Shown here: one piece after another, positions 39,001-60,065 of the stretch
Numbering within the stretch: the stretch's first letter is position 1
Layout of the letters: each line of letters opens with the position of its first letter
Assembly (NCBI GenBank): GCA_934167835.1
Contig: CAKPLZ010000001.1
Coordinates: 138,005-202,004, forward strand
Source: an uncultured Clostridia bacterium
GTDB lineage: Bacteria > Bacillota > Clostridia > TANB77 > CAG-508
Reading direction: 5' to 3'
DNA: 64,000 nt
Notes under the pieces: generated by a model
Databases searched by the model: none
Told to the model about the DNA's origin: nothing
What the model saw: only the letters and a program-made list of their open reading frames with translations
Position numbers and translations under genes: made by a program

Positions 39001-40593
39001 CTATTTATATATCATGTAATCAATCTCTGGGAAAATACAATCTTTCTTTTGTATCTGTTTTAAATACTCGCTATCAATCTTGTCCTCTTTTATTTGATAG
39101 TAAAGAGTTGTAAACCTTCCTATATGATCTTTTATTCTTTTCTTTGCATAATCAACCATTGTTCCATTAGTTATAATAAATAGCCAATCACTACTTTGTG
39201 CCAATAACAATTCACGTGCACATTGATTTAGTGCTCTTCTTCTTAATGTTTTTTTCTCATTTGGATATAAGTTTGCAAGTTCAACCATTCTATCACCTGC
39301 AACATGTAAATGTCTATGAGCATAATCATTTGTACTATTAAGCCATACTTCACTATATCCATTTGCTCCCCAACTTGAAATACATGGTGATGCTTCCTGC
39401 ATTTCTGGATATTTATCTATATATTCACCTGGAGTAATTAACTTAAAATTACCTTCATCATAGTAAATTTTTTTAAACAATATATATAACCAATATGGTC
39501 CTTCATACCACCAATGTCCATAAAGTTCTGCATCATAAGGGCATACTATAAGAGGTTTTGTAGGTGCCATTACTTCTGATAATTCATTTATTTGTTTAAC
39601 TCTTGAATCGAAAAAATGACCTGCTTGCTTTTCTGCTGAATCTTGTGCCCATTGAACATTGTAGTAATCCTTAAAATCACCTTTTGAAGTTATCCTATAA
39701 TACTTAATACCAGTATTTACTCTAGCACCGTTTTTTGCAATATATGGCTTAATATAATCATAGTCAGCATCATATCCAATATCTCTATAAAATTCACGAT
39801 AATTGAAATCGCCAGGATATCCACATACTGAACTCCATACTTGCCTTGAGCTTTCTATATCCCTACCAAAAGCCACAATTCCGCCAGGTGATACTATAGG
39901 CGCAAACGTACCAAATACTGGTGTTGGATCTGCATATAATATTCCATGAGACTCAGTAATTATGTACTCAATTCCAAACTCTTTTAAATATTTATCTGCC
40001 TCTGGTACATATCCACATTCAGGAAGCCAGATTCCTCTTGGAGGTTTTCCAAAATACTTTTTATATGTTTCAACTCCTACTCCAATTTGAGCTTTTACAG
40101 TTTTTTCATTTACATACAAAATTGGAAAATAGCCATGTGTTGCTCCACAAGTAATTATTTCCAATACTCCAATATCTTGAAAATGCTTAAATGCATTTAT
40201 TAAATTGCACTTAAATACATCTCTAAAAATGTGTAAATCATTTGTATATCTTTCTAAATAATATTTTGAAAGTTCATTTAGCCTTGAATCATACGCTGTT
40301 CTTTTTACCTCTTTTTCACAAAGTTCTATGTGTTTTTTCAAATACTTAATATACCTTCTTTGTAATAGCTTATTATCAAACATATTTAATAAAGGGGGAG
40401 TAAGCGACATAGTAATTCTAAAATCTACTTTTTCCTCCTCTAATTTTTTGAAATTAAGAAGTAATGGTATATATGTTTCAGATGTTGCTTCATATAACCA
40501 TTCTTCCTCTAAATAATCTTCACTTTCAGGGTGATGTATAAAAGGTAAATGTGCATGCAAGATAAAGCTTACATATCCCTTAGTTTTATCCAT
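39001..40593 (-). CDS. Glycoside hydrolase family 57 (1,4-alpha-glucan branching enzyme type)
   Basis: MDKTKGYVSFILHAHLPFIHHPE... is a typical GH57 N-terminus; 530 aa. Confidence 0.8.
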   Translation of the reverse strand: MDKTKGYVSFILHAHLPFIHHPESEDYLEEEWLYEATSETYIPLLLNFKKLEEEKVDFRITMSLTPPLLNMFDNKLLQRRYIKYLKKHIELCEKEVKRTAYDSRLNELSKYYLERYTNDLHIFRDVFKCNLINAFKHFQDIGVLEIITCGATHGYFPILYVNEKTVKAQIGVGVETYKKYFGKPPRGIWLPECGYVPEADKYLKEFGIEYIITESHGILYADPTPVFGTFAPIVSPGGIVAFGRDIESSRQVWSSVCGYPGDFNYREFYRDIGYDADYDYIKPYIAKNGARVNTGIKYYRITSKGDFKDYYNVQWAQDSAEKQAGHFFDSRVKQINELSEVMAPTKPLIVCPYDAELYGHWWYEGPYWLYILFKKIYYDEGNFKLITPGEYIDKYPEMQEASPCISSWGANGYSEVWLNSTNDYAHRHLHVAGDRMVELANLYPNEKKTLRRRALNQCARELLLAQSSDWLFIITNGTMVDYAKKRIKDHIGRFTTLYYQIKEDKIDSEYLKQIQKKDCIFPEIDYMIYK

Positions 40594-40607: not shown

Positions 40608-41456
40608 TTACATTTTTGAACTTGGATTTTTCTTTTCTAAATCCTGCAATTCATCATTTTTATATATTTTTTTATAGATATCATAGATATTATAAATTCT
40701 ACCAATGTATTTCATAAATTGAAATTGTGACACTTCTTTTGAATGTTTTTCATTAGTTTTTACATTTCTGAAAAATAATACCTTTTGATTTTTTTCGAAT
40801 AATATGTGATTATTTGGTGCTTCAATTGTGTTAGAAGAAGCAACATATAAATAATCATTTGGTATTATATTGTTTTTTTGCTTTGCTCTTCTTCCTAATT
40901 CTATTTCATAATCACACTTTGCATCATTTACTTTGAAATACCAACTGTTCGCAAAGTCATTTACCTCTATTTCGAAATAATAATTCATTGTTTTATTATG
41001 AACTATTAAAACAGGAACTGTCTCCTCAAAAAAGTTTTTTCCATATTCCTCTTCATATTTTTTTCTATCTTCATCTGATATATCCCAATAAACAAATAAT
41101 GTATTTGGTGTTTGTGCCAGTATTTTTACAATTGTTTGATTATATCTATATGGTAAATCATAGTATTCCATTATTTCTGGTTTTTTAACTGGTGCTTTTC
41201 TTTTTGTTGTTTTTGTAACTGGTACTTTCTTTTTAGTGTTTTGAGTTGTTCTTTTTTTCGCTACACTTTTTGCTCTTCCAGTGTTTCTTGGTTTTGCTGT
41301 ATTTTTTGCTTTTTCAGTAGTCTTCTTTTTTGTTACACTCTTTGTTTTATCTGCTGTTTTTGCTACTTTTCCAGAACCATTCTTCACTTCTTTTTTTGCA
41401 CCTGTAGCTTTTGAAGGAGCACTTGTCTTCTTCGTCTCCTTAGTACTTTTTCGCAT
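40608..41456 (-). CDS. DUF4912-domain protein (a frequent GH57 partner)
   Basis: Basic K/T-rich N-terminus, then the DUF4912-like core YYDLPYRYNQTIVKILAQTPNTLFVYWDISDE. Confidence 0.6.
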   Translation of the reverse strand: MRKSTKETKKTSAPSKATGAKKEVKNGSGKVAKTADKTKSVTKKKTTEKAKNTAKPRNTGRAKSVAKKRTTQNTKKKVPVTKTTKRKAPVKKPEIMEYYDLPYRYNQTIVKILAQTPNTLFVYWDISDEDRKKYEEEYGKNFFEETVPVLIVHNKTMNYYFEIEVNDFANSWYFKVNDAKCDYEIELGRRAKQKNNIIPNDYLYVASSNTIEAPNNHILFEKNQKVLFFRNVKTNEKHSKEVSQFQFMKYIGRIYNIYDIYKKIYKNDELQDLEKKNPSSKM

Positions 41457-41555: not shown

Positions 41556-42555
41556 TTAATTTTGTTGTATTGCAAAATTAATACCACGAGCCACTACATC
41601 TTTCATATTTTCTATTAAATCATCAATTTCTTTTGGTGTTACTATTAAGTTATATTCTTTTGGTATTAAAGCTTCTCTTATTAGTTCATATTTGTTAGTA
41701 TTTTTAAGTTCATTTAAATAGTCATTTGATTTTGCTTCTTTTTGTAATTTTTCTATAAATAAATCTATACTATCTGAAGCTATTGTTGCTGCTTCTACAA
41801 CCATCGGTACCCCTATTGCAATTACTGGTATTCCAAGGGTTCTTTGGCTTATTTCATTTCTTACATTTCCAACTCCAGCACCTGGAACAATTCCTGTATC
41901 TGCAATTTGAACTGTACTGCTAATTCTTTCTATACTTTTTGAAGATAAACTATCTATTACTATTAATAATTTGGGATTAATATTTTGGGCTATTCCTTTT
42001 ATTATTTCTGCTGTTTCAATTCCAGTTGTTCCAAGTACTCCTGGTGCTATTGCTGTTACTGGTCTTGTGTTTGGGTCTATATACTGAGCTGCATATTTTA
42101 AAAGATGTCTTGTTATATCTATGTCTTTTACGACTTTTGGCCCGAAGGGAATCTGGGGTCACATAAGCATTTCCTAGCCCGACAACTAAGATATCTCCTT
42201 TTTCATCTATATGTTTTTCTATTAGTGGTCTTAATTCTTTTGTTACTGTTTGTGCTCCTTTTTGAATTTCGTCATTATCTGCAATTTTTAAACTTTTAAT
42301 ATCAACTGTTATATATGTTCCAATGGGCTTGCCAAGTGCTTCAGCTCCTTTATCATTTACTATTTTTACTCTAGATATTTTAATCTTTTCATCAATTGTT
42401 TCTTCTTCTGTTTCAATTCCTTCAATATTATTTTCAATATTGTTGGCTTTTCTGTAGATATCATTTCTTTCTACAGCAAGGTCTGTATTAAAATTAAACA
42501 TACTTTTCATCCTTTCTTTTGTTTTATTTTTTTCTTTTTTTGTTTTTTTATACAA
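41556..42555 (-). CDS. gpr: Germination protease (spore endopeptidase GPR); one apparent +1 frameshift
   Basis: MFNFNTDLAVE...VVGLGNAYVTPDSL/GPKVVKDIDITRHLLKYAAQYIDP...VVEAATIASDS; extra base at ~42144. Confidence 0.8.
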
Positions 42556-42586
42556 AAAAATCCTAGACTATTGTTTAGTCTAGGAC
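42551..42586 (-). terminator. Terminator of the Cys/His-repeat surface protein gene
   Basis: tcctagacta ttgtt tagtctagga, with a T7 run on the minus strand. Confidence 0.7.
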
Positions 42587-42591
42587 AAAAA

Positions 42592-44850
42592 CTAATTATC
42601 TTCTCTGCTTAATTTTATTAATACAGCTGCTCCAAGAATTGCTCCCACAATCATTAATGCGATTTTCATGTTTTCTTCGGTACCTGTTTGTGGAATATTA
42701 TTTCTGCTTGTATTGTTATTTGATTGATTATTGTTAGTATTATTATTTGTATTGTTATTTGAGTTATTGTTTGAGTTGTTATTGTTATTTGGTTTGTCTG
42801 TATTGTTATTATCATTTGGCTTATCTGAATTATTGTTGTCATCTGGTTTGTTTGGTTTATTGTTGTCATCTGGTTTGTTTGGTTTATTGTTGTCATCTGG
42901 CTTAGCTGGTTTATTGTTGTTATCATCCGGTTTTGTGTTATTAGCCTTTTTAAATCCACATTTAGTACAAACATCATTTTCAAAAACATGATTTTCTTCA
43001 GCTGTTTTTGCACCACATGAGCATTCTTGCCAATGCTTATCATTACTATGTTTATACTCTAATTTATGATTTGCCTCATTCTTTTTTGCTCCACATGAAC
43101 ATTCTTCCCAATGCTTATTATTGTTATATTTTGTTTCGAATTTATGTGTTTGTTCATCTTTTTTCATTCCACATAAACATTCTTCCCAATGCTTATCATT
43201 GTTATATTTTGTTTCGAATTTATGTGTTTGTTCGTCTTTTTTCATTCCACATGAACATTCTTGCCAATGTTTGTCATTATTGCTTTTTGTATTAAATGTA
43301 TGTGCTACTTTATCTTTAATAGCTCCACATTTTGTACAACGTTTCCAATGATAATTCTCGTCTTTTCCTTCAATATATGTATGGTTGCAAACTATCTCTG
43401 CATTTTTTTTGCCACATTCACATACACCATTTACATATTTGTGTGCAACTTCTGCAGTTTTTCCGCCACAAATACATTCTTGCCAGTGTTTTGTATCATT
43501 ATATTTATATTCCAATTTATGATTTGACTCATTTTTTTTCATTCCGCATGAGCATTCTTGCCAATGTTTATCGTTGTTGTATTTATACTCAAATTTATGA
43601 TTTTGTTCATCCTTTTTCATTCCACATGAACATTCTTGCCAATGTTTATCATTGTTGTATTTTGTATTGAATGTATGTGCTACTTTATTTATAACATTTC
43701 CACATTTTGTACATTGATTCCAATGATAACCTGCATCATATTTTGCTACATAATTGTGACTACAACTTTGTGATTTAGTGCTTCCACAAACGCATACGCC
43801 ATTTACATAATTATGTGTTTCGTAGTCGTAAGTATCATTACATCTTGTGCATCTTTTCCAATGATAGTTTGAATCGTATCTATATTTACCATTATGTCCC
43901 ATTGCTGGAATCCATACTTCTTTATAAACAACACCACAATCATTACATATTGTTCTTTGATATCCTCCACTAGTACATGTTGCTGTTTCTTCATATCTTC
44001 TGCCATGAATACCATGTTCTTCTTTTTGAGTTTCATATCCACATTTTGAACATTCTTCCCAATGGTATGTTGCATTTGTTCTTTGTACAAATTTATGTGT
44101 ACATGATTCTTTATTTGTCATTCCACAAGCAGTACAAACATTGTTTTTATATGTAGAGTGTTTACATATATATCCACATTCTGTGCATTTACCATTTGAA
44201 TATGTATGTTTTACTTTTCCATCAAATAAAATCTTAGAACATTTATCACAAGTATACCAATGATAGTTTGCATCAGTTTTCAATGTCCATGATGAATGTT
44301 TACAAGTTTTAGAATCATCAATTTCATTCTTAGTCATTCCACAAATTGTACAAATATTATTTTGCATTTTTTTATGTTGACATGTAATTCCACAAACTGA
44401 GCATTTTGCATTTTGGAATGTATGAGCTTCTTTTCCAAAAACTGCCTTATGGCATCCTAAACATTCTTCCCAGTGATCCACATCATCTGTTTTTCTTATC
44501 CAAGAAACATGCTCACAATTTTCAATTAAAGTTTGGCAAAATTTGCATTTTCCATTTTCAAAGCTATGAACGCATTTATGACCACATGTTACACATTCAT
44601 TTTTAGATGTATAAATATGTGGTTGCATTATTGTTTTTTTACAATGTATACATTCTGCCATGTGTCCATTATCTAATCCAACATCTTCCCAGTCAAAAGC
44701 ATAATGTTGACATTCTGTTGCTTTTGTTTGATTGTTAAGAACAATAGAAGTTACTATTGTTGCAAGTAATAAAATTGTAGAAACTACAGAAATAATTACA
44801 AGTTTTTGTTTTCTCATAATATAATATATCCCCCTTTTAGATTTTTTCAA
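42592..44850 (-). CDS. Sortase-anchored (IPQTG) surface protein made of tandem Cys/His-rich ~27-aa modules
   Basis: Signal or TM at the N-terminus. At least 15 units of the form [KY]HW.EC.CG...E..H.[FL]E.KYNND. A KPDDNN / NNNS low-complexity stalk. NIPQTG, then a hydrophobic stretch, then KLSREDN. The DNA carries near-identical 81-bp tandem units. Confidence 0.7.
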   Translation of the reverse strand: MKKSKRGIYYIMRKQKLVIISVVSTILLLATIVTSIVLNNQTKATECQHYAFDWEDVGLDNGHMAECIHCKKTIMQPHIYTSKNECVTCGHKCVHSFENGKCKFCQTLIENCEHVSWIRKTDDVDHWEECLGCHKAVFGKEAHTFQNAKCSVCGITCQHKKMQNNICTICGMTKNEIDDSKTCKHSSWTLKTDANYHWYTCDKCSKILFDGKVKHTYSNGKCTECGYICKHSTYKNNVCTACGMTNKESCTHKFVQRTNATYHWEECSKCGYETQKEEHGIHGRRYEETATCTSGGYQRTICNDCGVVYKEVWIPAMGHNGKYRYDSNYHWKRCTRCNDTYDYETHNYVNGVCVCGSTKSQSCSHNYVAKYDAGYHWNQCTKCGNVINKVAHTFNTKYNNDKHWQECSCGMKKDEQNHKFEYKYNNDKHWQECSCGMKKNESNHKLEYKYNDTKHWQECICGGKTAEVAHKYVNGVCECGKKNAEIVCNHTYIEGKDENYHWKRCTKCGAIKDKVAHTFNTKSNNDKHWQECSCGMKKDEQTHKFETKYNNDKHWEECLCGMKKDEQTHKFETKYNNNKHWEECSCGAKKNEANHKLEYKHSNDKHWQECSCGAKTAEENHVFENDVCTKCGFKKANNTKPDDNNNKPAKPDDNNKPNKPDDNNKPNKPDDNNNSDKPNDNNNTDKPNNNNNSNNNSNNNTNNNTNNNQSNNNTSRNNIPQTGTEENMKIALMIVGAILGAAVLIKLSREDN

Positions 44851-44858
44851 CCTTTTAT

Positions 44859-44932
44859 ATTATATCGCATTTCCCGTAGTATTTCAACTCATTTATGTCA
44901 TTTTTGTAACATTTCTGTAATATTCCTGTAAT
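44859..44932 (-). promoter_or_regulatory. Promoter (TTGAAA-17-TATAAT) with a triple WalR-type box TGTAAC-N5-TGTAAT-N5-TGTAAT
   Basis: -35 at 44882-44887 and -10 at 44859-44864 (reverse complement). Hexamers at 44905-44910, 44916-44921 and 44927-44932. Confidence 0.55.
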
Positions 44933-44948
44933 ATTTATACTTAAAATT

Positions 44949-46992
44949 CTATAAATTCATTCCTGCCCTAAGCATTCCCTCAATTTGCTTTTTTAGAATT
45001 TTATTTTTTTCGATTTCAAGTTTTTTATCTTCATTCATTATTTGGGTGGCAATGTTTTGTACCACTTTTAAGATATCCATATCTTGAAACAAGTTTGCAA
45101 TTTTAAATTCTGGTATTCCATGTTGTTTTGTTCCAAAAAATTCGCCTGAACCTCTAAGTTCTAAATCCTTTTCTGATATTTTAAATCCATCATTTGTTTC
45201 TACCATTATTTTCATTCTTTCTCTGGTGTTTTCTCCTTTGCCACTATATTTTAGTATGCAATATGATTTGTATTGACCTCTTCCTACTCTTCCCCTTAAT
45301 TGGTGTAATGTTGCCAAACCAAATCGCTCAGCATTTTCTATTACCATTATACTTGCATTTGGAACATCAACGCCTACCTCAATTACTGTTGTTGATACTA
45401 AAATATCAATCTTTCCTGATTTGAAATTTTGCATAATTTCATCTTTTTCTTTTTGTTTTAATTTTCCATGTAAAACTTCAAGCCTATAGTCTCTAAATGT
45501 TTCCTCTTTATATTTTTTCGCAATTTCAATTACTGATTTTAGGTCCATCTCATCATTTTCTTCTATGAGTGGGCAAACAATATATGCTTGTCTTCCTTCT
45601 GCTATTTGTTTTTTTACAAAATTATTTACTCTTTCTTCTGCGGATGGAGTTACTGCAAAAGTATCTATTTTCTGCCTGTTTGGTGGCAGTTCATCTATAA
45701 TTGAAATATCAAGGTCTCCATATAAAATTAGTGCTAATGTTCTTGGAATTGGTGTTGCAGATAAGGCTAAAACATCTGGTGCCAAGCCTTTAGCGCTCAA
45801 TTTACCTCTTTGCCTTACACCAAATCTATGTTGCTCATCTGTTACAACTAATCCTAAATTCTTAAATTCTACATTTTCCTCTAGCAAAGCATGTGTTCCA
45901 ATTATTACATCTATGTTTCCGTTTTTTAATTCTTCTAATATTTTTTCTTTTTGTTTTTTAGTAATATTACTTACCAATAGTTCACATCTGATGTTGTATT
46001 TTTTAAATAACTTATTAAAATTATCTAAATGCTGTTTTGCAAGAATTGCTGTTGGTGCCATTATTGCTGCTTGATATCCGTGATTTTACTGCTTTATATG
46101 TTGCACACATTGCAACAGCAGTTTTTCCGCTTCCTACATCACCCTGAAGTAATCGGTTCATTGCAAAATCGCTTTCCATATCTTTATCAATTTCTTCTAA
46201 AACTCTAGTTTGAGCTCCTGTAAGTTTAAACGGAAGGCTATTTATTATATCTACCATTTTTATTTCTTTACTAAATTTTATTCCTTTTTTCTCATTTGAA
46301 TAATTGCTTTTAAATGTAAGAAGTGCAAGTTGCATTATTAGTAGTTCTTCGAAAACAAGTCTTTTTCGTGCTTCATTATATTTCTTAAAATCATCTGGGA
46401 AGTGAATTTGGTGGATTGCCTCATTTCTTTTCATTAAGTGAAATTCACTAATTATATACTCTGGCAATGTTTCTGGTAGATTTTCTATTTGTACAAAAGC
46501 ATTTTCAATTATCTTTCTTAATGTGTTTTGTGGTAATTCATTAATACTTGGATATATTGGTATGATTCTTCCTGTATTTTTATTTGAATCTTCTTCATCA
46601 AATAAAGGTGACATCATTTCAATTTGGTTAATTTTGCGTTTTACTTTACCATAGAATTTATAGGTTTTTCCAACTATAAATTTGTTTTTTAAGTAAAAAC
46701 AATTAAACCATGTAAGTGTACAAGTTGCAGTTTCATCTCTTACAACAAGCTTGTATATTGCCATGTTTTTTCTTATTTTTATTTCTGCCATTTTTGAAAC
46801 ACATTTTGCTTCAATTAAGGCTTCTTCCCCATCTACTAAATCTGCTATTTTTTTGTGTACACCTCTATTTTCGTAGGTTCTTGGGTAATATGTTATGATA
46901 TCTTCTAATGTGAAAATATTTAATTTATTTAAGCTTTTTATTCTATTGGGACCAACGCCTTTTATGTATTTAGCATCATTTGATAAATCCAT
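44949..46992 (-). CDS. recG: ATP-dependent DNA helicase RecG; one apparent +1 frameshift
   Basis: ...AMCATYKAVKS/GYQAAIMAPTAILAKQHLDNF...; extra base at ~46070; 681 codons. Confidence 0.85.
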
Positions 46993-55048: not shown

Positions 55049-58000
55049 TTATAAAACGAATTTTTTAATTAAAACTATTCCTGAGCTAATTATAATCAAT
55101 GAAACTAGTCCAAGCCAAATGTAAGATGCTGTTCCACCTGTTTTAATTTCCAATATTACTAATGCTTTATCGTCATCATCTTCTTGTTGTTTATCGTAAT
55201 CTGTAATTTTTACGTTATCTGGAGTTGAATCTATGTCTTTTGAACCTTTATCGTTATAATCTTCACTAATTTCTGCAATGTTAGTTTTTAATCCCATGTT
55301 ATTTGTATTGTTTTTCCATGTAAATATAACTTCTACAGTTGCAGTTTCTCCTGGTTTTAACAATGTTTGTTCTAGTGCTCTTGTTGTTATTTTGTTATCT
55401 CCAGCTTTTGTCCATAATGGGTTATCTTCTTGAACAAATTCTAATCCTTCTGGGATGTAATCTGTTATTTCTGTTGCATATCCTTCAATCTCACCTTGAT
55501 TCATTATGATAATGTTATATGCAAATTTTACAACTGTTTTATCTAATTTTTTCTTATCTATAACAACTTTTGCGATTGGCTCTGGATCATCATAAGGTGT
55601 AAATCCTGTTTCTGTTGTTGTAGTTTTTCCATCTACTGTTACAATTGTTTTTGTTACCCATTTTAATAATGCTAAATCAAAATATTTTACGTATATTTTT
55701 TCAATATCTTGGTCATCTTCGCCTTCATTCCATTGATCTGGTATTGAATCTATATCATCTATATCAATTTCATTACCATTTTCATCTACTGCTTTATCTT
55801 TTGTAATTTGTGCTTTATTTATTATAATTCTATCATCTTGTGTTATCTTTCTTTCTACAACTTTGAATGCAACTTTTACTTCTGCATGACTTGGGTTTGT
55901 GTCGCTAATTTCTTGAGTTGGGTCAAAAGTATTTAATAATGTATTTTCTAGATATTTTGTTCTTATTTCAACAGCTTTACTTGAATCTGTTGTTTCATTT
56001 CCATCTTTGTCTAACATTACCCATTTGTAGTTTTTGTTTGTTTCATGTTCTGGTAAAAATTCTAGTCCGTCAGGAATATCGTCTGATATTTCTGTAGCAT
56101 ATCCTAAAGTTGTTCCTTCGTTGTATACTCTAATTGTATATGTAACTATATCACTGTTTGCAACATATACTGGTGTTTTGTCATGGATGTATTCAAGATT
56201 TCCGTCATCATTTAATTTTGGATTTGGTATTCTTGTTGTTACATCTTCGGCATTTACTTTTGTTATGAATTTACGTAAGCTTAAGTCAAAATATCTTAAT
56301 TTGATTTGTTCGTAGTCATCATCATCTTCTTGATATGTGCTATTTTCTGTTGGTGGATTGTAATTGTCTGTATCAACATTATCTGGTGTTGAATCTCTAT
56401 CGTTTGCTCCTATTTCTTTTCCTGCATCATCTACTGCTTTATCTTCAGCAATTTCAGCTATGTTTCTTAATATTCCTTTATATGTATTTTCAGCAAGTAC
56501 AACACATGTTATTTCTACATCTCTATAATATAGTCCATCTGTTCCTGATATTGATTTTTGCCACATATTGTTTGAGTCTATATCTTGGCTTGTTACATCC
56601 TTGTCATACGCTTTTATAAGTTCATCTTCTAATGCTGTTGATGTAATTTTTGCTTTTCCTGTTACAATTTTTACTTCACTTAAATTTTGCTTTGAATAAA
56701 AGTCGTCAGTTTTTAAGTTTTTTACAATGTTTTCATTTTTATATAGTCCATTTTCTCCTACTAAATCCATTGTTTTTGTATCACTATCTATTACTGGAAC
56801 CCAGAAGTTATCTGTGTTTGTTTTATAATCCATTAGGTATCCTAATCCTTCTGGAATATAATCAGCAATTTTTGTAGCATATCCATCAAGTTCGCCTTCA
56901 TTATAGATTCTGAAAGTGAATGTAACAATATCACCTTTCTTTACTGTTACTGGATCTTTTGGATGAGTATATATTGCAGTTTCATTTTTTTGTCCTGTTG
57001 TTTCATCTATTGAATTTAACTTACTTGTATCAACTGTTGGAATCCTATCTGTTATTGTTGTTCCATTTATTTTTGTTATAAATTTACGTAAGCTTAAATC
57101 AAATGGCACACCTTTTATTACTACTTTTTCAAAATCGTCATCATCTTCTTGGCCTTCGTAGAAATAATCTTTATCTCCTAGATATGGCTTGTTGCTATCT
57201 TTTCCTTTATAGTCTTCTAGGTTGGTTGGAACTTGAAGATTATCGTTTTGTGAGTCTCTGTCTTGCATATTTGCATCTTCTGTATTTGCTGGTTCATATT
57301 TCATTGTTGCTATATTTGTTAGTATTTTATCAGCAGTACCTTTTGTTGCTGTAACTTTGCAAACTATTTCAATAGAATCAAAGTCTAAAACTTCTCCATC
57401 AAAACTATTTAATCTAAATAGGTAGCTTTTTTCTAGTGGGTATATATGTAAAGCTCTTGTTTCAGCATCAAATTGATATTTGTATTCTTTACCTACCAAT
57501 TCTTCGGCGGTATAAATTTCTTTTTGTTCAATAAATTTTGGATTGTTTTCTGCGTTGAATTCTAATCCTTCAGGTAGGTAATCTATAATTTCTGTTACCA
57601 AACCGTCAACTTCACCTTCATTATATGCTGAAATCATGTATGTTACCCTGTCCCCTGTTTTTACTTCTACTGGATCTTTTCTGTGTTTATAATCAGCTGT
57701 TGATTTATTGGCTAATTTAGTTATATCAATATTTGGTTCTCTATTTGCGTTAACATCTGTTCCATTTACTTTTGTAATATATTTTCTAAGTGCTAAGTCG
57801 AATGATTTGATTTTTTTATTAACAACTTTAATTGTTATAACATTATTTATCACTTCAAAAGTTACACCATCTATTACTATTGTATCTCCTGTTGAATTAA
57901 TGAAATTAACTTTATCAATAATATATCTTGTTCCTTCACTATTTAACTTTGTTGTTATTTTTATTTTAATTGCTCCATTTATTCCTATATATCCACTTGG

Positions 58001-59365
58001 TGATGAAATTTCTTCTATTTCATAGATAAATTCTTGGCCTTCATAAGTAATTGGTATAGCTGGGCAATTAAAAGTTCCGTCTCCATTGTTTGTTATAGTA
58101 ATTACTTTTCTATCTTCTGTAATCATTGTAAATTCAGCACCAAATAATAGATTTCCTTTTTCATCTCTTTTTTCTAATACTACATTAAAGTCTCCTTCTA
58201 TTACTGGTTCTTTTTCAATTTTAACAACTGGTTGTTCATCATTTCCAGCGAGCCATAATGTTGCTTTTGTATTATAAATTTCTTCATAAGTACATTCTGC
58301 ATATATGTTTGCATCATTTAAATCATATTCTGATGATAACCTATTTGAAATTTTTATATAAAAGTTTCCTTGCCCTATTGTCTCTTCTAGTGATCCAAAA
58401 TCCTGTGTCATGTTTTCTGGTGCTTTAACCAAATAGATAATTGGAGTGCTATCAACTTTTTCTGGTATAATTTTGCCTTGATTATCTGTTACTGTAAATT
58501 TAACATCATAATCTACATTTCCATCAGTTTTGCTTATATTAAATGGTCCTATAACGGAAAAATTATTATTTGTAGTTTTTGTTTTTGAAATACTTGTTAC
58601 TTTTATTTCTGGTTTTTTATATGTTATATTTCTTCCATCTCCTGTTCCATAATCTAGAACATGTGCTTTTGCGCCATTTATAAAGTATTTATATAAAGTA
58701 TCAATTTGATTTGCTTTAGTTTCACTTAGAGATTCTCCATCAATTTTTGTTGTGTTACTTAATACATAAGTATCTAAAAGTGATAATGATGATTGTCCTC
58801 CATTTTCATCATAGTTTGAAAAATACCATAGTGCCATTTGTTGTACAAATTCTATATCATCATCTGTTAATTCAGAATTAACAATTTGTGCTTTTTTAAT
58901 TAATCTTTCTTTCATTTTGGCATTGTCAGCATGTTCTGGTAAATACATATTGTCTATTATCCATAACATTGCATTATATTCAGTATTTGAAATGTTGTAT
59001 CCAATTGTATTTCTGAAATAATTCATAACATCTGTTGCGTTTGTTTTTAAATTAAAACTTTCTGTGTATGTTATATCAGCAACCTGAGTTATGTCTGATA
59101 TGCTAGCAGAGTTTCCAAATCCCAATCCACTTCTCAAGCAATATAAAGCATTGTTATAGTTGTAAGTTCCATTTAGTTTTTCTCTGATTTTAAATATTGT
59201 ATTAACATTACCATTTGGTGTTGTTACTGTATATGTTTTTTGAGTATATGGTCTTTTGTCAATAATATTTAAATTCATTGTGTTTGCTGCATAAACTTCG
59301 CTTCCTAAAATAATTGAAGCTATAATTAAAAACATAAAAATTAATGATACTTTAAATTTCTTCAT
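55049..59365 (-). CDS. Large cell-surface adhesin: putative thioester (TQXA-like) domain, DUF11/TIGR01451 repeat stalk, C-terminal sorting-signal-like segment
   Basis: Signal peptide. Cys in NALYCLRSG and a Q-x-A-x-W motif in EFVQQMALWYFSNYDENG. At least four repeats starting DL(S/A)LRK(F/Y/W)ITK(I/V)NG and containing ...GD.VT(F/Y)...YNEG...DYIPEGL.... ...LEIKTGG is followed by a hydrophobic stretch and KKFVL. Confidence 0.6.
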   Translation of the reverse strand: MKKFKVSLIFMFLIIASIILGSEVYAANTMNLNIIDKRPYTQKTYTVTTPNGNVNTIFKIREKLNGTYNYNNALYCLRSGLGFGNSASISDITQVADITYTESFNLKTNATDVMNYFRNTIGYNISNTEYNAMLWIIDNMYLPEHADNAKMKERLIKKAQIVNSELTDDDIEFVQQMALWYFSNYDENGGQSSLSLLDTYVLSNTTKIDGESLSETKANQIDTLYKYFINGAKAHVLDYGTGDGRNITYKKPEIKVTSISKTKTTNNNFSVIGPFNISKTDGNVDYDVKFTVTDNQGKIIPEKVDSTPIIYLVKAPENMTQDFGSLEETIGQGNFYIKISNRLSSEYDLNDANIYAECTYEEIYNTKATLWLAGNDEQPVVKIEKEPVIEGDFNVVLEKRDEKGNLLFGAEFTMITEDRKVITITNNGDGTFNCPAIPITYEGQEFIYEIEEISSPSGYIGINGAIKIKITTKLNSEGTRYIIDKVNFINSTGDTIVIDGVTFEVINNVITIKVVNKKIKSFDLALRKYITKVNGTDVNANREPNIDITKLANKSTADYKHRKDPVEVKTGDRVTYMISAYNEGEVDGLVTEIIDYLPEGLEFNAENNPKFIEQKEIYTAEELVGKEYKYQFDAETRALHIYPLEKSYLFRLNSFDGEVLDFDSIEIVCKVTATKGTADKILTNIATMKYEPANTEDANMQDRDSQNDNLQVPTNLEDYKGKDSNKPYLGDKDYFYEGQEDDDDFEKVVIKGVPFDLSLRKFITKINGTTITDRIPTVDTSKLNSIDETTGQKNETAIYTHPKDPVTVKKGDIVTFTFRIYNEGELDGYATKIADYIPEGLGYLMDYKTNTDNFWVPVIDSDTKTMDLVGENGLYKNENIVKNLKTDDFYSKQNLSEVKIVTGKAKITSTALEDELIKAYDKDVTSQDIDSNNMWQKSISGTDGLYYRDVEITCVVLAENTYKGILRNIAEIAEDKAVDDAGKEIGANDRDSTPDNVDTDNYNPPTENSTYQEDDDDYEQIKLRYFDLSLRKFITKVNAEDVTTRIPNPKLNDDGNLEYIHDKTPVYVANSDIVTYTIRVYNEGTTLGYATEISDDIPDGLEFLPEHETNKNYKWVMLDKDGNETTDSSKAVEIRTKYLENTLLNTFDPTQEISDTNPSHAEVKVAFKVVERKITQDDRIIINKAQITKDKAVDENGNEIDIDDIDSIPDQWNEGEDDQDIEKIYVKYFDLALLKWVTKTIVTVDGKTTTTETGFTPYDDPEPIAKVVIDKKKLDKTVVKFAYNIIIMNQGEIEGYATEITDYIPEGLEFVQEDNPLWTKAGDNKITTRALEQTLLKPGETATVEVIFTWKNNTNNMGLKTNIAEISEDYNDKGSKDIDSTPDNVKITDYDKQQEDDDDKALVILEIKTGGTASYIWLGLVSLIIISSGIVLIKKFVL

Positions 59366-59753: not shown

Positions 59754-59829
59754 GCGGAAGTAGCTCAGTTGATAGAGCGATGCCTTGCCAAGGCATAGGT
59801 CGCGGGTTTGAGCCCCGTCTTCCGCTCCA
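59754..59829 (+). tRNA. tRNA-Gly (GCC)
   Basis: Cloverleaf with anticodon loop cuUGCCAa, encoded CCA, high similarity to Firmicutes tRNA-Gly. Confidence 0.85.
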
Positions 59830-59889
59830 AAATTTTTTTATATGTAATTAATCATCTTTTTACTTTGGTTTGCATATAATAAAGTATAA

Positions 59890-59964
59890 GGCGACATAGC
59901 CAAGTGGTAAGGCACGAGTCTGCAAAACTCTGATTCCCCGGTTCAAATCCGGGTGTCGCCTCCA
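59890..59964 (+). tRNA. tRNA-Cys (GCA)
   Basis: ggcgacatagccaagtggtaaggc...ctGCAaa...ggttcaaatccgggtgtcgcctcca. Confidence 0.85.
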
Positions 59965-59989
59965 ATTTTTTTAAATTTTAAATGGACAT

Positions 59990-60065
59990 GCACCATTAGC
60001 TTAGTTGGTAGAGCAGGGCACTCTTAATGCCAAGGTCCACGGTTCAAATCCGTGATGGTGCACCA
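59990..60065 (+). tRNA. tRNA-Lys (CTT)
   Basis: Acceptor stem gcaccat/atggtgc, anticodon loop ctCTTaa, T-arm ggttcaaatcc, CCA end. Confidence 0.8.

Follow-up and report, generated by a model that had tools for sequence, protein, structure and literature searches.

The present study analyzed a 64-kb window (64,000 nucleotides of contig CAKPLZ010000001.1, from an uncultured Clostridia bacterium) and focused on a minus-strand gene for a predicted surface protein that consists almost entirely of tandem Cys/His-rich modules. We consider it likely that this protein forms a variable-length beta-rod, stapled by zinc, anchored in the manner of a sortase substrate, and devoid of a distinct head domain. 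The open reading frame (ORF) that the first-pass annotation placed at 42592..44850 was borne out as 752 codons, with the maximal frame opening at TTG 44850. The start was moved to ATG 44817, the likely start codon, because AAGGGGGA precedes it and all database homologues begin with MRKQKL. The extra 11 codons between TTG 44850 and ATG 44817 are probably not translated. The exact protein of 741 amino acids (aa) is present in a public protein collection (P0118).

The gene looks monocistronic, judging from its own promoter-like site and terminator (Table 1). The TTGAAA-17-TATAAT element is a consensus match only, as the total of promoter-like sites across the region was not above shuffle expectation. 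The gene is flanked by a frameshifted recG on one side and the gpr spore-protease gene on the other, and the same flanking genes were found in three independent gut metagenome contigs (L001–L003), one of which is a Hadza sample.

Layout of the protein and conservation of its Cys and His residues

The whole protein contains 58 Cys and 43 His, and its ectodomain of ~590 residues (approximately residues 35–625) holds 101 Cys and His together. Units were defined by cutting the protein at each HW, which yielded 13 HW units (U1–U13). The tandem ~27-aa Cys/His modules described previously are present as 13 HW..C..C modules; however, the short period is 26 aa, and only two units have 27 aa. The short units (five of 26 aa and two of 27 aa) are each C2H2, and only the 27-aa pair is of the CxxC type. 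The longer units include two of 46 aa (C5H3) and three of 66–71 aa, plus a 32-aa terminal unit. U1–U5 bear additional CxxCG knuckles and C-x-H motifs, and a degenerate module ahead of U1 reads HMAECIHC instead of HWxxCxxC.

The remaining elements of the earlier description were also recovered: the N-terminal hydrophobic segment (residues 1–34), which is a candidate signal peptide or N-terminal membrane anchor; the longer N-terminal modules with extra NGKCxxCG knuckles; and, in order, the KPDDNN / NNN(S/T) stalk, IPQTG, a hydrophobic helix, and KLSREDN.

Table 1. Features of the surface-protein gene and its product in the 64-kb window
Feature	Position	Strand	Description
Promoter-like TTGAAA-17-TATAAT	44859..44887	(-)	11/12 consensus matches, ~40 nt upstream of ATG
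Shine-Dalgarno AAGGGGGA	44829..44836	(-)	12 nt ahead of ATG 44817, read from sequence
CDS	42592..44817	(-)	741 aa + stop, from ATG 44817; protein begins MRKQKL
N-terminal segment, residues 1–34	44716..44817	(-)	MRKQK, 22-residue hydrophobic stretch, NNQTKA
Long modules, residues 35–363	43729..44715	(-)	degenerate first module, then HW units U1–U5 (46–71 aa)
Array A, short units U6–U8 (27, 26, 26 aa)	43492..43728	(-)	TRF, unit cutting
U9, 46 aa	43354..43491	(-)	C5H3: HW unit + second CxCG knuckle + C-N-H
Array B, short units U10–U13 (27, 26, 26, 26 aa)	43039..43353	(-)	TRF, unit cutting
Terminal unit KHWQECSCGAKTAEENHVFENDVCTKCGFKKA, residues 594–625	42943..43038	(-)	final CxxCG knuckle
Low-complexity stalk, residues 626–707 (82 residues)	42697..42942	(-)	KPDDNN(K/N) nonamers, then NNN(S/T/Q) repeats
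Sorting-signal-like tail	42595..42696	(-)	IPQTG, TEEN, 18-residue hydrophobic MKIALMIVGAILGAAVLI, KLSREDN
Intrinsic terminator-like hairpin	42560..42586	(-)	11 pairs then T-run, directly past stop codon

All 13 HW units keep H-W-x2-C-x(1-2)-C-x(8-10)-H, and the only invariant columns in the 13-unit alignment are H2, W3, C6, C9, and H18. The ligand order inside one unit is H-C-C-H. Residue conservation was computed over 34 homologues with 27–38% identity; on average, a Cys was identical in 26.1 of the 34, a His in 21.1, a Trp in 12.8, and any other residue in 4.9. H58, H80, H123, H271, H590, and C281 are unconserved, and they are precisely the residues located outside the ligand lattice. The other 57 Cys and 38 His follow a strict periodic lattice (...H-10-H-3-C-1-C-8-H...) and divided, in our own partition from the conservation data, into 23 tetrads and one triad. 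This conservation and the clean partition lend indirect support to the earlier prediction that Cys2His2-type knuckles bind Zn or another metal, with zinc as the most likely one.

No separate N-terminal head domain was found; residues 35–113 share the Cys/His module grammar of the rest and contain no Pfam or NCBIfam domain.

Relatives of the module in IgA protease and other surface proteins

Pfam and NCBIfam searches at E <= 10 returned no model for the module in this protein, and Pfam scans of 15 homologues likewise gave no model covering it. Pfam models of zinc fingers and zinc ribbons were not matched, even at E <= 10. Candidate matches to 7kD_DNA_binding (P0007), PknG_rubred, FYVE, and L24 (P0173) were rejected as knuckle or composition artefacts, with no individually significant stretch.

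A sequence search of the PDB with phmmer found one chain, 9qa6_A "IgA protease", at residues 913–1110 (E = 0.0016), and a 28-position unit profile also ranked 9qa6_A first (E = 0.016). BLASTP (E = 1e-7) gave 64% identity over 25 aa with the ZBD2 knuckle of this protease (KSNADNHWHECNCGDKKDEAAHSFK vs KSNNDKHWQECSCGMKKDEQTHKFE), and U4 was colinear with ZBD1 subdomains II–III over a 65-aa BLASTP stretch (...HWHECTVAGCG...ATATTAGTKHKECTVC...IPSTG). The protease signature, an HW-x2-C-x(1-4)-C-G knuckle with a His 8–10 residues later, was invariant in 13/13 units. These results indicate that the module is homologous to ZBD1/ZBD2 (= CTD2/CTD4) of the Thomasclavelia ramosa M64 IgA protease (IgAse/IgAP; UniProt Q9AES2). 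The suggestion that the module belongs to no described family therefore holds for Pfam and NCBIfam, but not for the literature, in which ZBD1/ZBD2 were described in 2025.

The 2025 papers presented ZBD/CTD2-4 as a putative new metal-binding, rod-like "periscope" fold from AlphaFold and small-angle X-ray scattering (SAXS) (PMC12237041, PMC12415215). SAXS data on CTD2 fit a fully extended rod, and a periscope domain was proposed (PMC12415215). The experimental IgAse structures were built from NTD to O-beta only; therefore, there are no solved coordinates for the module. The zinc sites of IgAse are predictions with C2H2 and C3H1 chemistries (PMC12237041).

The 741-aa protein and IgAse share the HW-x-EC-x-CG...H signature, all-beta modules of three short strands (our AlphaFold2 [AF2] model compared with PMC12237041), and predicted C2H2 and C3H1 ligand sets. 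In both, the modules are located just ahead of a low-complexity linker and an xPQTG sorting signal. However, the two ZBDs of IgAse are short and non-identical (129 and 70 aa) and serve as spacers behind a large protease head, whereas modules make up the whole ~590-aa ectodomain of the 741-aa protein, which lacks a head of either enzymatic or adhesive type. A further difference is that this ectodomain includes arrays of a 26-aa minimal unit, in which DNA identity reaches 93%. Furthermore, no variation in repeat number has been reported for IgAse, while the copy number in the 741-aa protein varies by strain.

Two further relatives of ~300 aa, P0366 and P0368, contain 2–3 tandem complete IgAse-type ZBD units of ~64 aa each (EHTHSYGSEWKSNADKHWHECSCG...KHKECTVCHRVLETGTIPATG). 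Behind these units come a T/P-rich linker and an anchor with either SPKTG or SPQTG, and the proteins resemble the tail of IgAse minus the protease.

The similarity to zinc ribbons and rubredoxin knuckles, such as the TFIIS C-terminal domain, is more distant. A CxxCG or CxCG knuckle at the tip of a beta-hairpin and, in the predicted fold of the module, a three-stranded antiparallel sheet are common to both, and subdomain I of IgAse distantly resembles TFIIS (PMC12237041). However, a zinc ribbon uses two knuckles of one domain, whereas the ligands of one site in the module would come from two adjoining modules (a His pair and a knuckle). The module is also predicted to be extracellular and polymerised into a rod. 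In the classical C2H2 arrangement, C-C-H-H lies within one domain of ~30 aa, whereas the present units read H-C-C-H.

A search of 5.8 billion proteins yielded 117 relatives. In homologues, the module co-occurs with cohesin, BspA-type LRR, Flg_new, Big_2, transglutaminase, CHAP/M23, and LPXTG domains. A module profile built from 36 relatives was run against 1.84 billion representatives clustered at 50% identity, and it matched 21,125 clusters at E <= 1e-3; with the cut-off tightened to E <= 1e-10 and E <= 1e-30, 6,868 and 1,022 clusters remained, respectively. The stricter counts are safer because the profile also holds signal-peptide and anchor columns. By these numbers the module is not rare, and the view of the first-pass annotation that metal-binding knuckles are unusual for an extracellular Gram-positive wall protein is not supported. 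Giant matches of 4,000–6,700 aa contained up to 20 matched stretches, e.g., P0179 (6716 aa) and P0167 (6446 aa), and P0168, which is among them, also carries Ig-like domains. The sources named among the matches were Coprobacillus, Oscillospiraceae, Ruminococcus bromii, Coprococcus, Agathobaculum, and "Clostridia bacterium". These matches indicate that surface proteins of gut Bacillota commonly use this unannotated module as a building block, and in very long fibrillar surface proteins, which are entirely unannotated themselves, it seems to make up much of the stalk. A scan of genome contigs found no close orthologue of the 741-aa protein, only a 29% relative in a Eubacteriales metagenome-assembled genome and a match to the low-complexity stalk in C. 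tertium.

Extracellular Cys-rich repeats are usually disulfide-bonded. The Cys of the 741-aa protein may accordingly be oxidised into disulfide-knotted repeats, EGF-like or other, with the His otherwise employed and no metal bound. IgAse required dithiothreitol for monodispersity, so its Cys can oxidise in air (PMC12237041). However, the His residues are conserved jointly with the Cys in fixed 2+2 or 3+1 groups, while His and Cys off the lattice are unconserved. The C-x(1-2)-C-G motif is a knuckle of the rubredoxin or zinc-ribbon type, and weak profile matches pointed to rubredoxins, with PknG_rubred and FYVE in one homologue. In the short units, the Cys pair is separated by only 1–2 residues, which is unfit for the usual stabilising intra-unit disulfide, and IgAse structures and models show no disulfides. 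The habitat also argues against oxidation. The host looks like an anaerobic, spore-former-type Clostridia member of the human gut, as indicated by SpoIIE, GPR, YtxC, Pta-AckA, 29% GC, and the gut samples; since this habitat is reducing, extracellular thiolate-metal sites are plausible. We consider a disulfide-knotted protein to be very unlikely, and metal binding by the lattice is the reading followed below.

DNA repeats and length variation among strains

Tandem Repeats Finder (TRF) detected DNA repeats far above chance. The arrays at 43013–43278 and 43474–43705 have a period of 78 bp (26 aa), with 84–86% matches and scores of 360 and 241, and 27-bp repeats encode the KPDDNN(K/N) nonamers of the stalk. 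The 81-bp repeat reported previously was thus corrected to 78 bp, and its description of successive units as almost identical applies to U11/U12 only (43117–43272; 93% DNA identity), with the remaining unit pairs at 56–85%. The block U6–U8 was 82% identical to U10–U12 over 237 bp of DNA.

The earlier expectation that unit number can change was supported by differences between strains. Twelve full-length variants in the same 90% cluster ranged from 689 to 780 aa, with 11–14 HW units differing through exact 78-bp indels. Across these variants, array A contained 1–4 units, array B 3–5 units, and the stalk 73–100 aa. Copy-number changes were confined to these three regions, and the long N-terminal modules were constant. 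The gene in the window and its counterpart in contig L001 showed 98.4% DNA identity and differed in length by a single 78-bp indel and a single 27-bp indel, neither of which shifts the frame; the former is located near 43233 in array B and the latter near 42900 in the stalk. Control proteins from the same strains were stable in length: one had 1438 aa in 13/14 full-length members (1440 aa in the other), and another had 723 or 727 aa. These comparisons show length variation between strains; the antigenic variation suggested earlier is conjectural. We propose that whole units of exactly 78 bp would be gained or lost by recombination or slippage between similar repeats, giving 11–14 units and stalks of varying length. 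Since the ligand lattice is periodic, whole-unit 78-bp indels would be tolerated with every site left intact.

Variable repeat number is a property of Periscope Proteins, namely the G5-E repeats of SasG/Aap, Rib, and the SHIRT domains of Sgo_0707 (Whelan et al. 2021, PMC8201768). As is predicted for the 741-aa protein, they carry a C-terminal wall-anchor signal and a rod of tandem similar folded repeats, and in both cases the repeat number differs from strain to strain via similar DNA repeats. G5-E is, like the ZBD module, single-layer beta without a classical hydrophobic core (comparison from PMC12415215). However, the units have 26 aa here and ~80–130 aa in Periscope Proteins, and DNA identity between units is mostly 56–85% here and >90% there. 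The metal sites also differ, being predicted as intramolecular Cys/His sites in the 741-aa protein and being intermolecular in Aap, which binds zinc via His, Asp, and Glu. Furthermore, Periscope Proteins project an N-terminal functional domain, whereas the 741-aa protein projects none. We refer to it as a periscope-type stalk rather than a canonical member because of this missing N-terminal head.

The distribution of the variation may also be read as that of a conventional fibrillar adhesin, in which residues 35–363 are a ligand-binding tip (for mucin, IgA, or a bacterium) and only the short-unit arrays are the stalk. The N-terminal modules are longer, more diverse, and fixed in copy number, with variation restricted to arrays A and B and the stalk, which agrees with the head-plus-variable-stalk logic of Periscope Proteins (PMC8201768). 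However, the N-terminal part shares the ligand lattice and module grammar with the rest, contains no Pfam adhesive domain, and was modelled by AF2 as the same small sheets. We regard a dedicated tip as unlikely. Such a reading is compatible with, and not exclusive of, a zinc-stapled rod, which we continue to favor.

Predicted rod, probable wall anchoring, and other genes in the window

The AF2 model of the 596-residue ectodomain, based on 36 sequences, was all-beta with pLDDT 74 and pTM 0.26 (pLDDT 60–80 in residues 35–363), and its low pTM fits an elongated shape. The model of residues 489–626 (U10–U13 and the terminal unit) was confident (pLDDT 94.4, pTM 0.62), with three strands per 26 aa and no helices. 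The DSSP string of a unit runs in the order strand, knuckle loop, strand, His, strand, and NND turn, and that of the terminal unit contains a mini-hairpin, FE-ND-VC. A Foldseek search of the PDB with the model of residues 489–626 returned nothing at E <= 1e-3, with a best TM-score of 0.2. Beta-propellers (BamB, WD40) that Foldseek matched to the 596-residue model were rejected as 3Di repeated-hairpin artefacts (TM 0.05–0.15; root-mean-square deviation 24–36 Å).

We propose that the ectodomain would be a chain of small ZBD/CTD2-4-type beta modules. Each 26-aa unit would supply three short strands, two His (H2 and H17), and one Cys knuckle (C6-x-C8-G). The three-stranded sheets would stack end to end, each sheet being formed by beta3 of unit n and beta1/beta2 of unit n+1. 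At each junction, one tetrahedral metal, most likely Zn(II), would be bound by H2 and H17 from unit n together with C6 and C8 from unit n+1 (C2H2). It would link the upper end of one sheet, where the His pair lies, to the lower end of the following sheet, which bears the Cys knuckle. Longer modules would instead build a C3H1 site from C-x-H and the following knuckle, and the last CxxCG knuckle of the terminal unit KHWQECSCGAKTAEENHVFENDVCTKCGFKKA would close the final metal site.

This register assigns 14 C2H2 sites, 9 C3H1 sites, and one incomplete site, with each conserved ligand used exactly once. Its two chemistries are those reported for IgAse, and it fits the mini-hairpin of the terminal unit. 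The opposite register, in which the knuckle of unit n joins the His pair of unit n+1, partitions the ligands as well, but it was rejected in favor of this one because it requires five kinds of site (C4, C1H3, and H3 among them) rather than only C2H2 and C3H1. Nor does it agree with the IgAse subdomain borders as published. The total of ~24 sites would yield a stiff single-chain rod without a hydrophobic core. Extrapolation from IgAse ZBD1 (110 Å per 129 aa) suggests a length of ~50 nm, at ~2.2 nm per unit.

The very dense sites (101 Cys and His in ~590 aa) may also suggest that metal handling is the primary task of the protein, either as a surface reservoir or scavenger of Zn (or Fe, Ni, or Cu) with ~24 ions per chain or as a chain of redox sites. 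Sites of the C2H2 and C3H1 types are compatible with several transition metals. Regulation of function by environmental zinc has been speculated (PMC12415215). However, fully coordinated tetrahedral Cys/His sites are typically structural, tight, and slow-exchanging (PMC12415215, PMC12237041), and the module recurs as a linker across thousands of multidomain surface proteins that are unrelated to one another. The neighbours of the gene are recG and gpr, with no adjoining metal transporter or regulator, and the predicted sites, spaced at ~2 nm, lie too far apart for electrons to hop efficiently. A primary role in metal handling is, in our opinion, highly improbable. The zinc-stapled rod would probably function in spacing or adhesion at the cell surface, where contacts would be made by its tip or by the rod as such.

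The C-terminal IPQTG, hydrophobic helix, and short charged tail most likely make the protein a sortase substrate. The pentapeptide is located ~30–34 residues from the C-terminus, within the 17–45 expected of sortase substrates, and fits the xPxTG type of clostridial sortase substrates (PMC4155245). SPQTG is among the motifs best cleaved by C. difficile SrtB (PMC4155245) and is also the motif of IgAse (PMC12237041). The substrates of C. difficile SrtB share with the 741-aa protein the xPxTG motif, the hydrophobic helix, and a short K/R-containing tail; the 741-aa protein differs from them in Ile at the first position and in a tail that is not net positive. The tail matched PF00746 with 16.5 bits (cut-off 20) and TIGR01167 with 15.2 (cut-off 15.9). 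The earlier view of a secreted protein with an LPXTG-like C-terminal signal is supported, though both matches are sub-threshold, and some homologues pass the curated LPXTG-anchor cut-offs.

The window encodes a second surface protein of 1438 aa at 55049–59365 (-), with a signal peptide, thioester domain (TED), SpaA, and DUF11. Its C-terminus consists of LEIKTGG, a transmembrane segment, and KKFVL, a sorting-like signal, and its cluster is length-invariant across strains. The identity of this ORF as PolC was rejected because of its TED/SpaA/DUF11 content. This C-terminus suggests that a sortase system is present in the organism.

Several points weigh against an anchored, zinc-stapled rod. The scores of the sorting-signal hidden Markov models sit below the curated cut-offs, the tail KLSREDN has no net positive charge, and a TLxTC motif search of ORFs found no sortase gene in the 64-kb window. 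The full-length ectodomain model is only moderately confident, as its pLDDT and pTM show. The zinc sites are predictions in this protein and in the IgAse ZBDs alike, and the ZBDs are absent from the deposited coordinates. The register was derived from DSSP strings, ligand order, and published subdomain borders (at the H17-equivalent His), and one junction (H308, C323, and C326) has three obvious ligands only. The published ligand map of IgAse may itself be uncertain: ZBD2 sites 7 and 8 were reported as 2 Cys + 2 His and 3 Cys + 1 His, i.e., five Cys (PMC12237041), whereas the ZBD2 sequence we recovered (P0364) has only four Cys, in HWHECNCG and EECK(I/T)CG. The copy numbers derive from short-read metagenome assemblies, which can mis-assemble repeats, and may therefore err. 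Lastly, projection of a head cannot be the function because the protein has no N-terminal ligand-binding head.

The module has no Pfam or NCBIfam entry and no experimental structure, yet >20,000 protein clusters matched it, and these include many giant surface proteins from anaerobes of the gut. Previously, it had been noticed in one IgA protease only, as a pair of accessory domains. The 741-aa protein is its cleanest natural example, since it is an almost pure array of modules, its minimal unit has 26 aa, its model is confident, and its copy number is polymorphic. The nearly pure module-array ectodomain built on this minimal unit is new, as is the full partition of the conserved ligands into ~24 predicted inter-module sites. 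Copy-number polymorphism, also new, was observed directly here and was lacking in the work on IgAse. The protein supplies the tandem near-identical repeats and length variation that the 2025 proposal of "metal-associated periscope domains" lacked, and it is an ideal construct both for metal analysis and for a first crystal or nuclear magnetic resonance structure. Should zinc stapling prove correct, it accounts for the ability of anaerobes to make extracellular stalks that are long, thin, and core-less yet free of disulfides. A new domain family would then be justified, which would annotate thousands of "hypothetical" surface proteins.

We also envisage, as a doubtful extension, that the ~24 staples make the rod a zinc-gated mechanical element, rigid at ~50 nm with zinc and a flexible chain under calprotectin withholding or oxidation. 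In that case, metal and redox status would feed into surface architecture, adhesion, or shedding. Metal-stapled, core-less 26-aa beta modules would represent a new principle for extracellular rods, which would extend to a very large unannotated module family of gut Firmicutes.

Several housekeeping genes were split into two ORFs by frameshifts, namely recG (44949–46992), gpr (41556–42555), and Sua5 (L001 543–1386). The frame of recG changes at an A-run near 46075 (GTAAAATCAC), where ...YKAVKS continues as NHGYQAAIMAPT in another frame, and that of the GPR spore protease changes upstream of ~42060. Since identical splits (323+370, 161+82, and 222+52 aa) were called in the independent metagenome contigs L001–L003, isolated sequencing errors do not account for them. 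The genes may be pseudogenes, transcription may slip in this AT-rich genome, or the contigs may share a bias of assembly or polishing.

An Rfam scan found nothing near the surface-protein gene, and its only matches in the window were three consecutive tRNA genes at 59754–60062 (+). A Lys/Thr-rich DUF4912 protein (40608–41456 (-)) is encoded directly upstream of a GH57 / branching-enzyme-C gene (39001–40593 (-)). This pair appears unrelated to the surface-protein gene and is kept in both L001 and L002.

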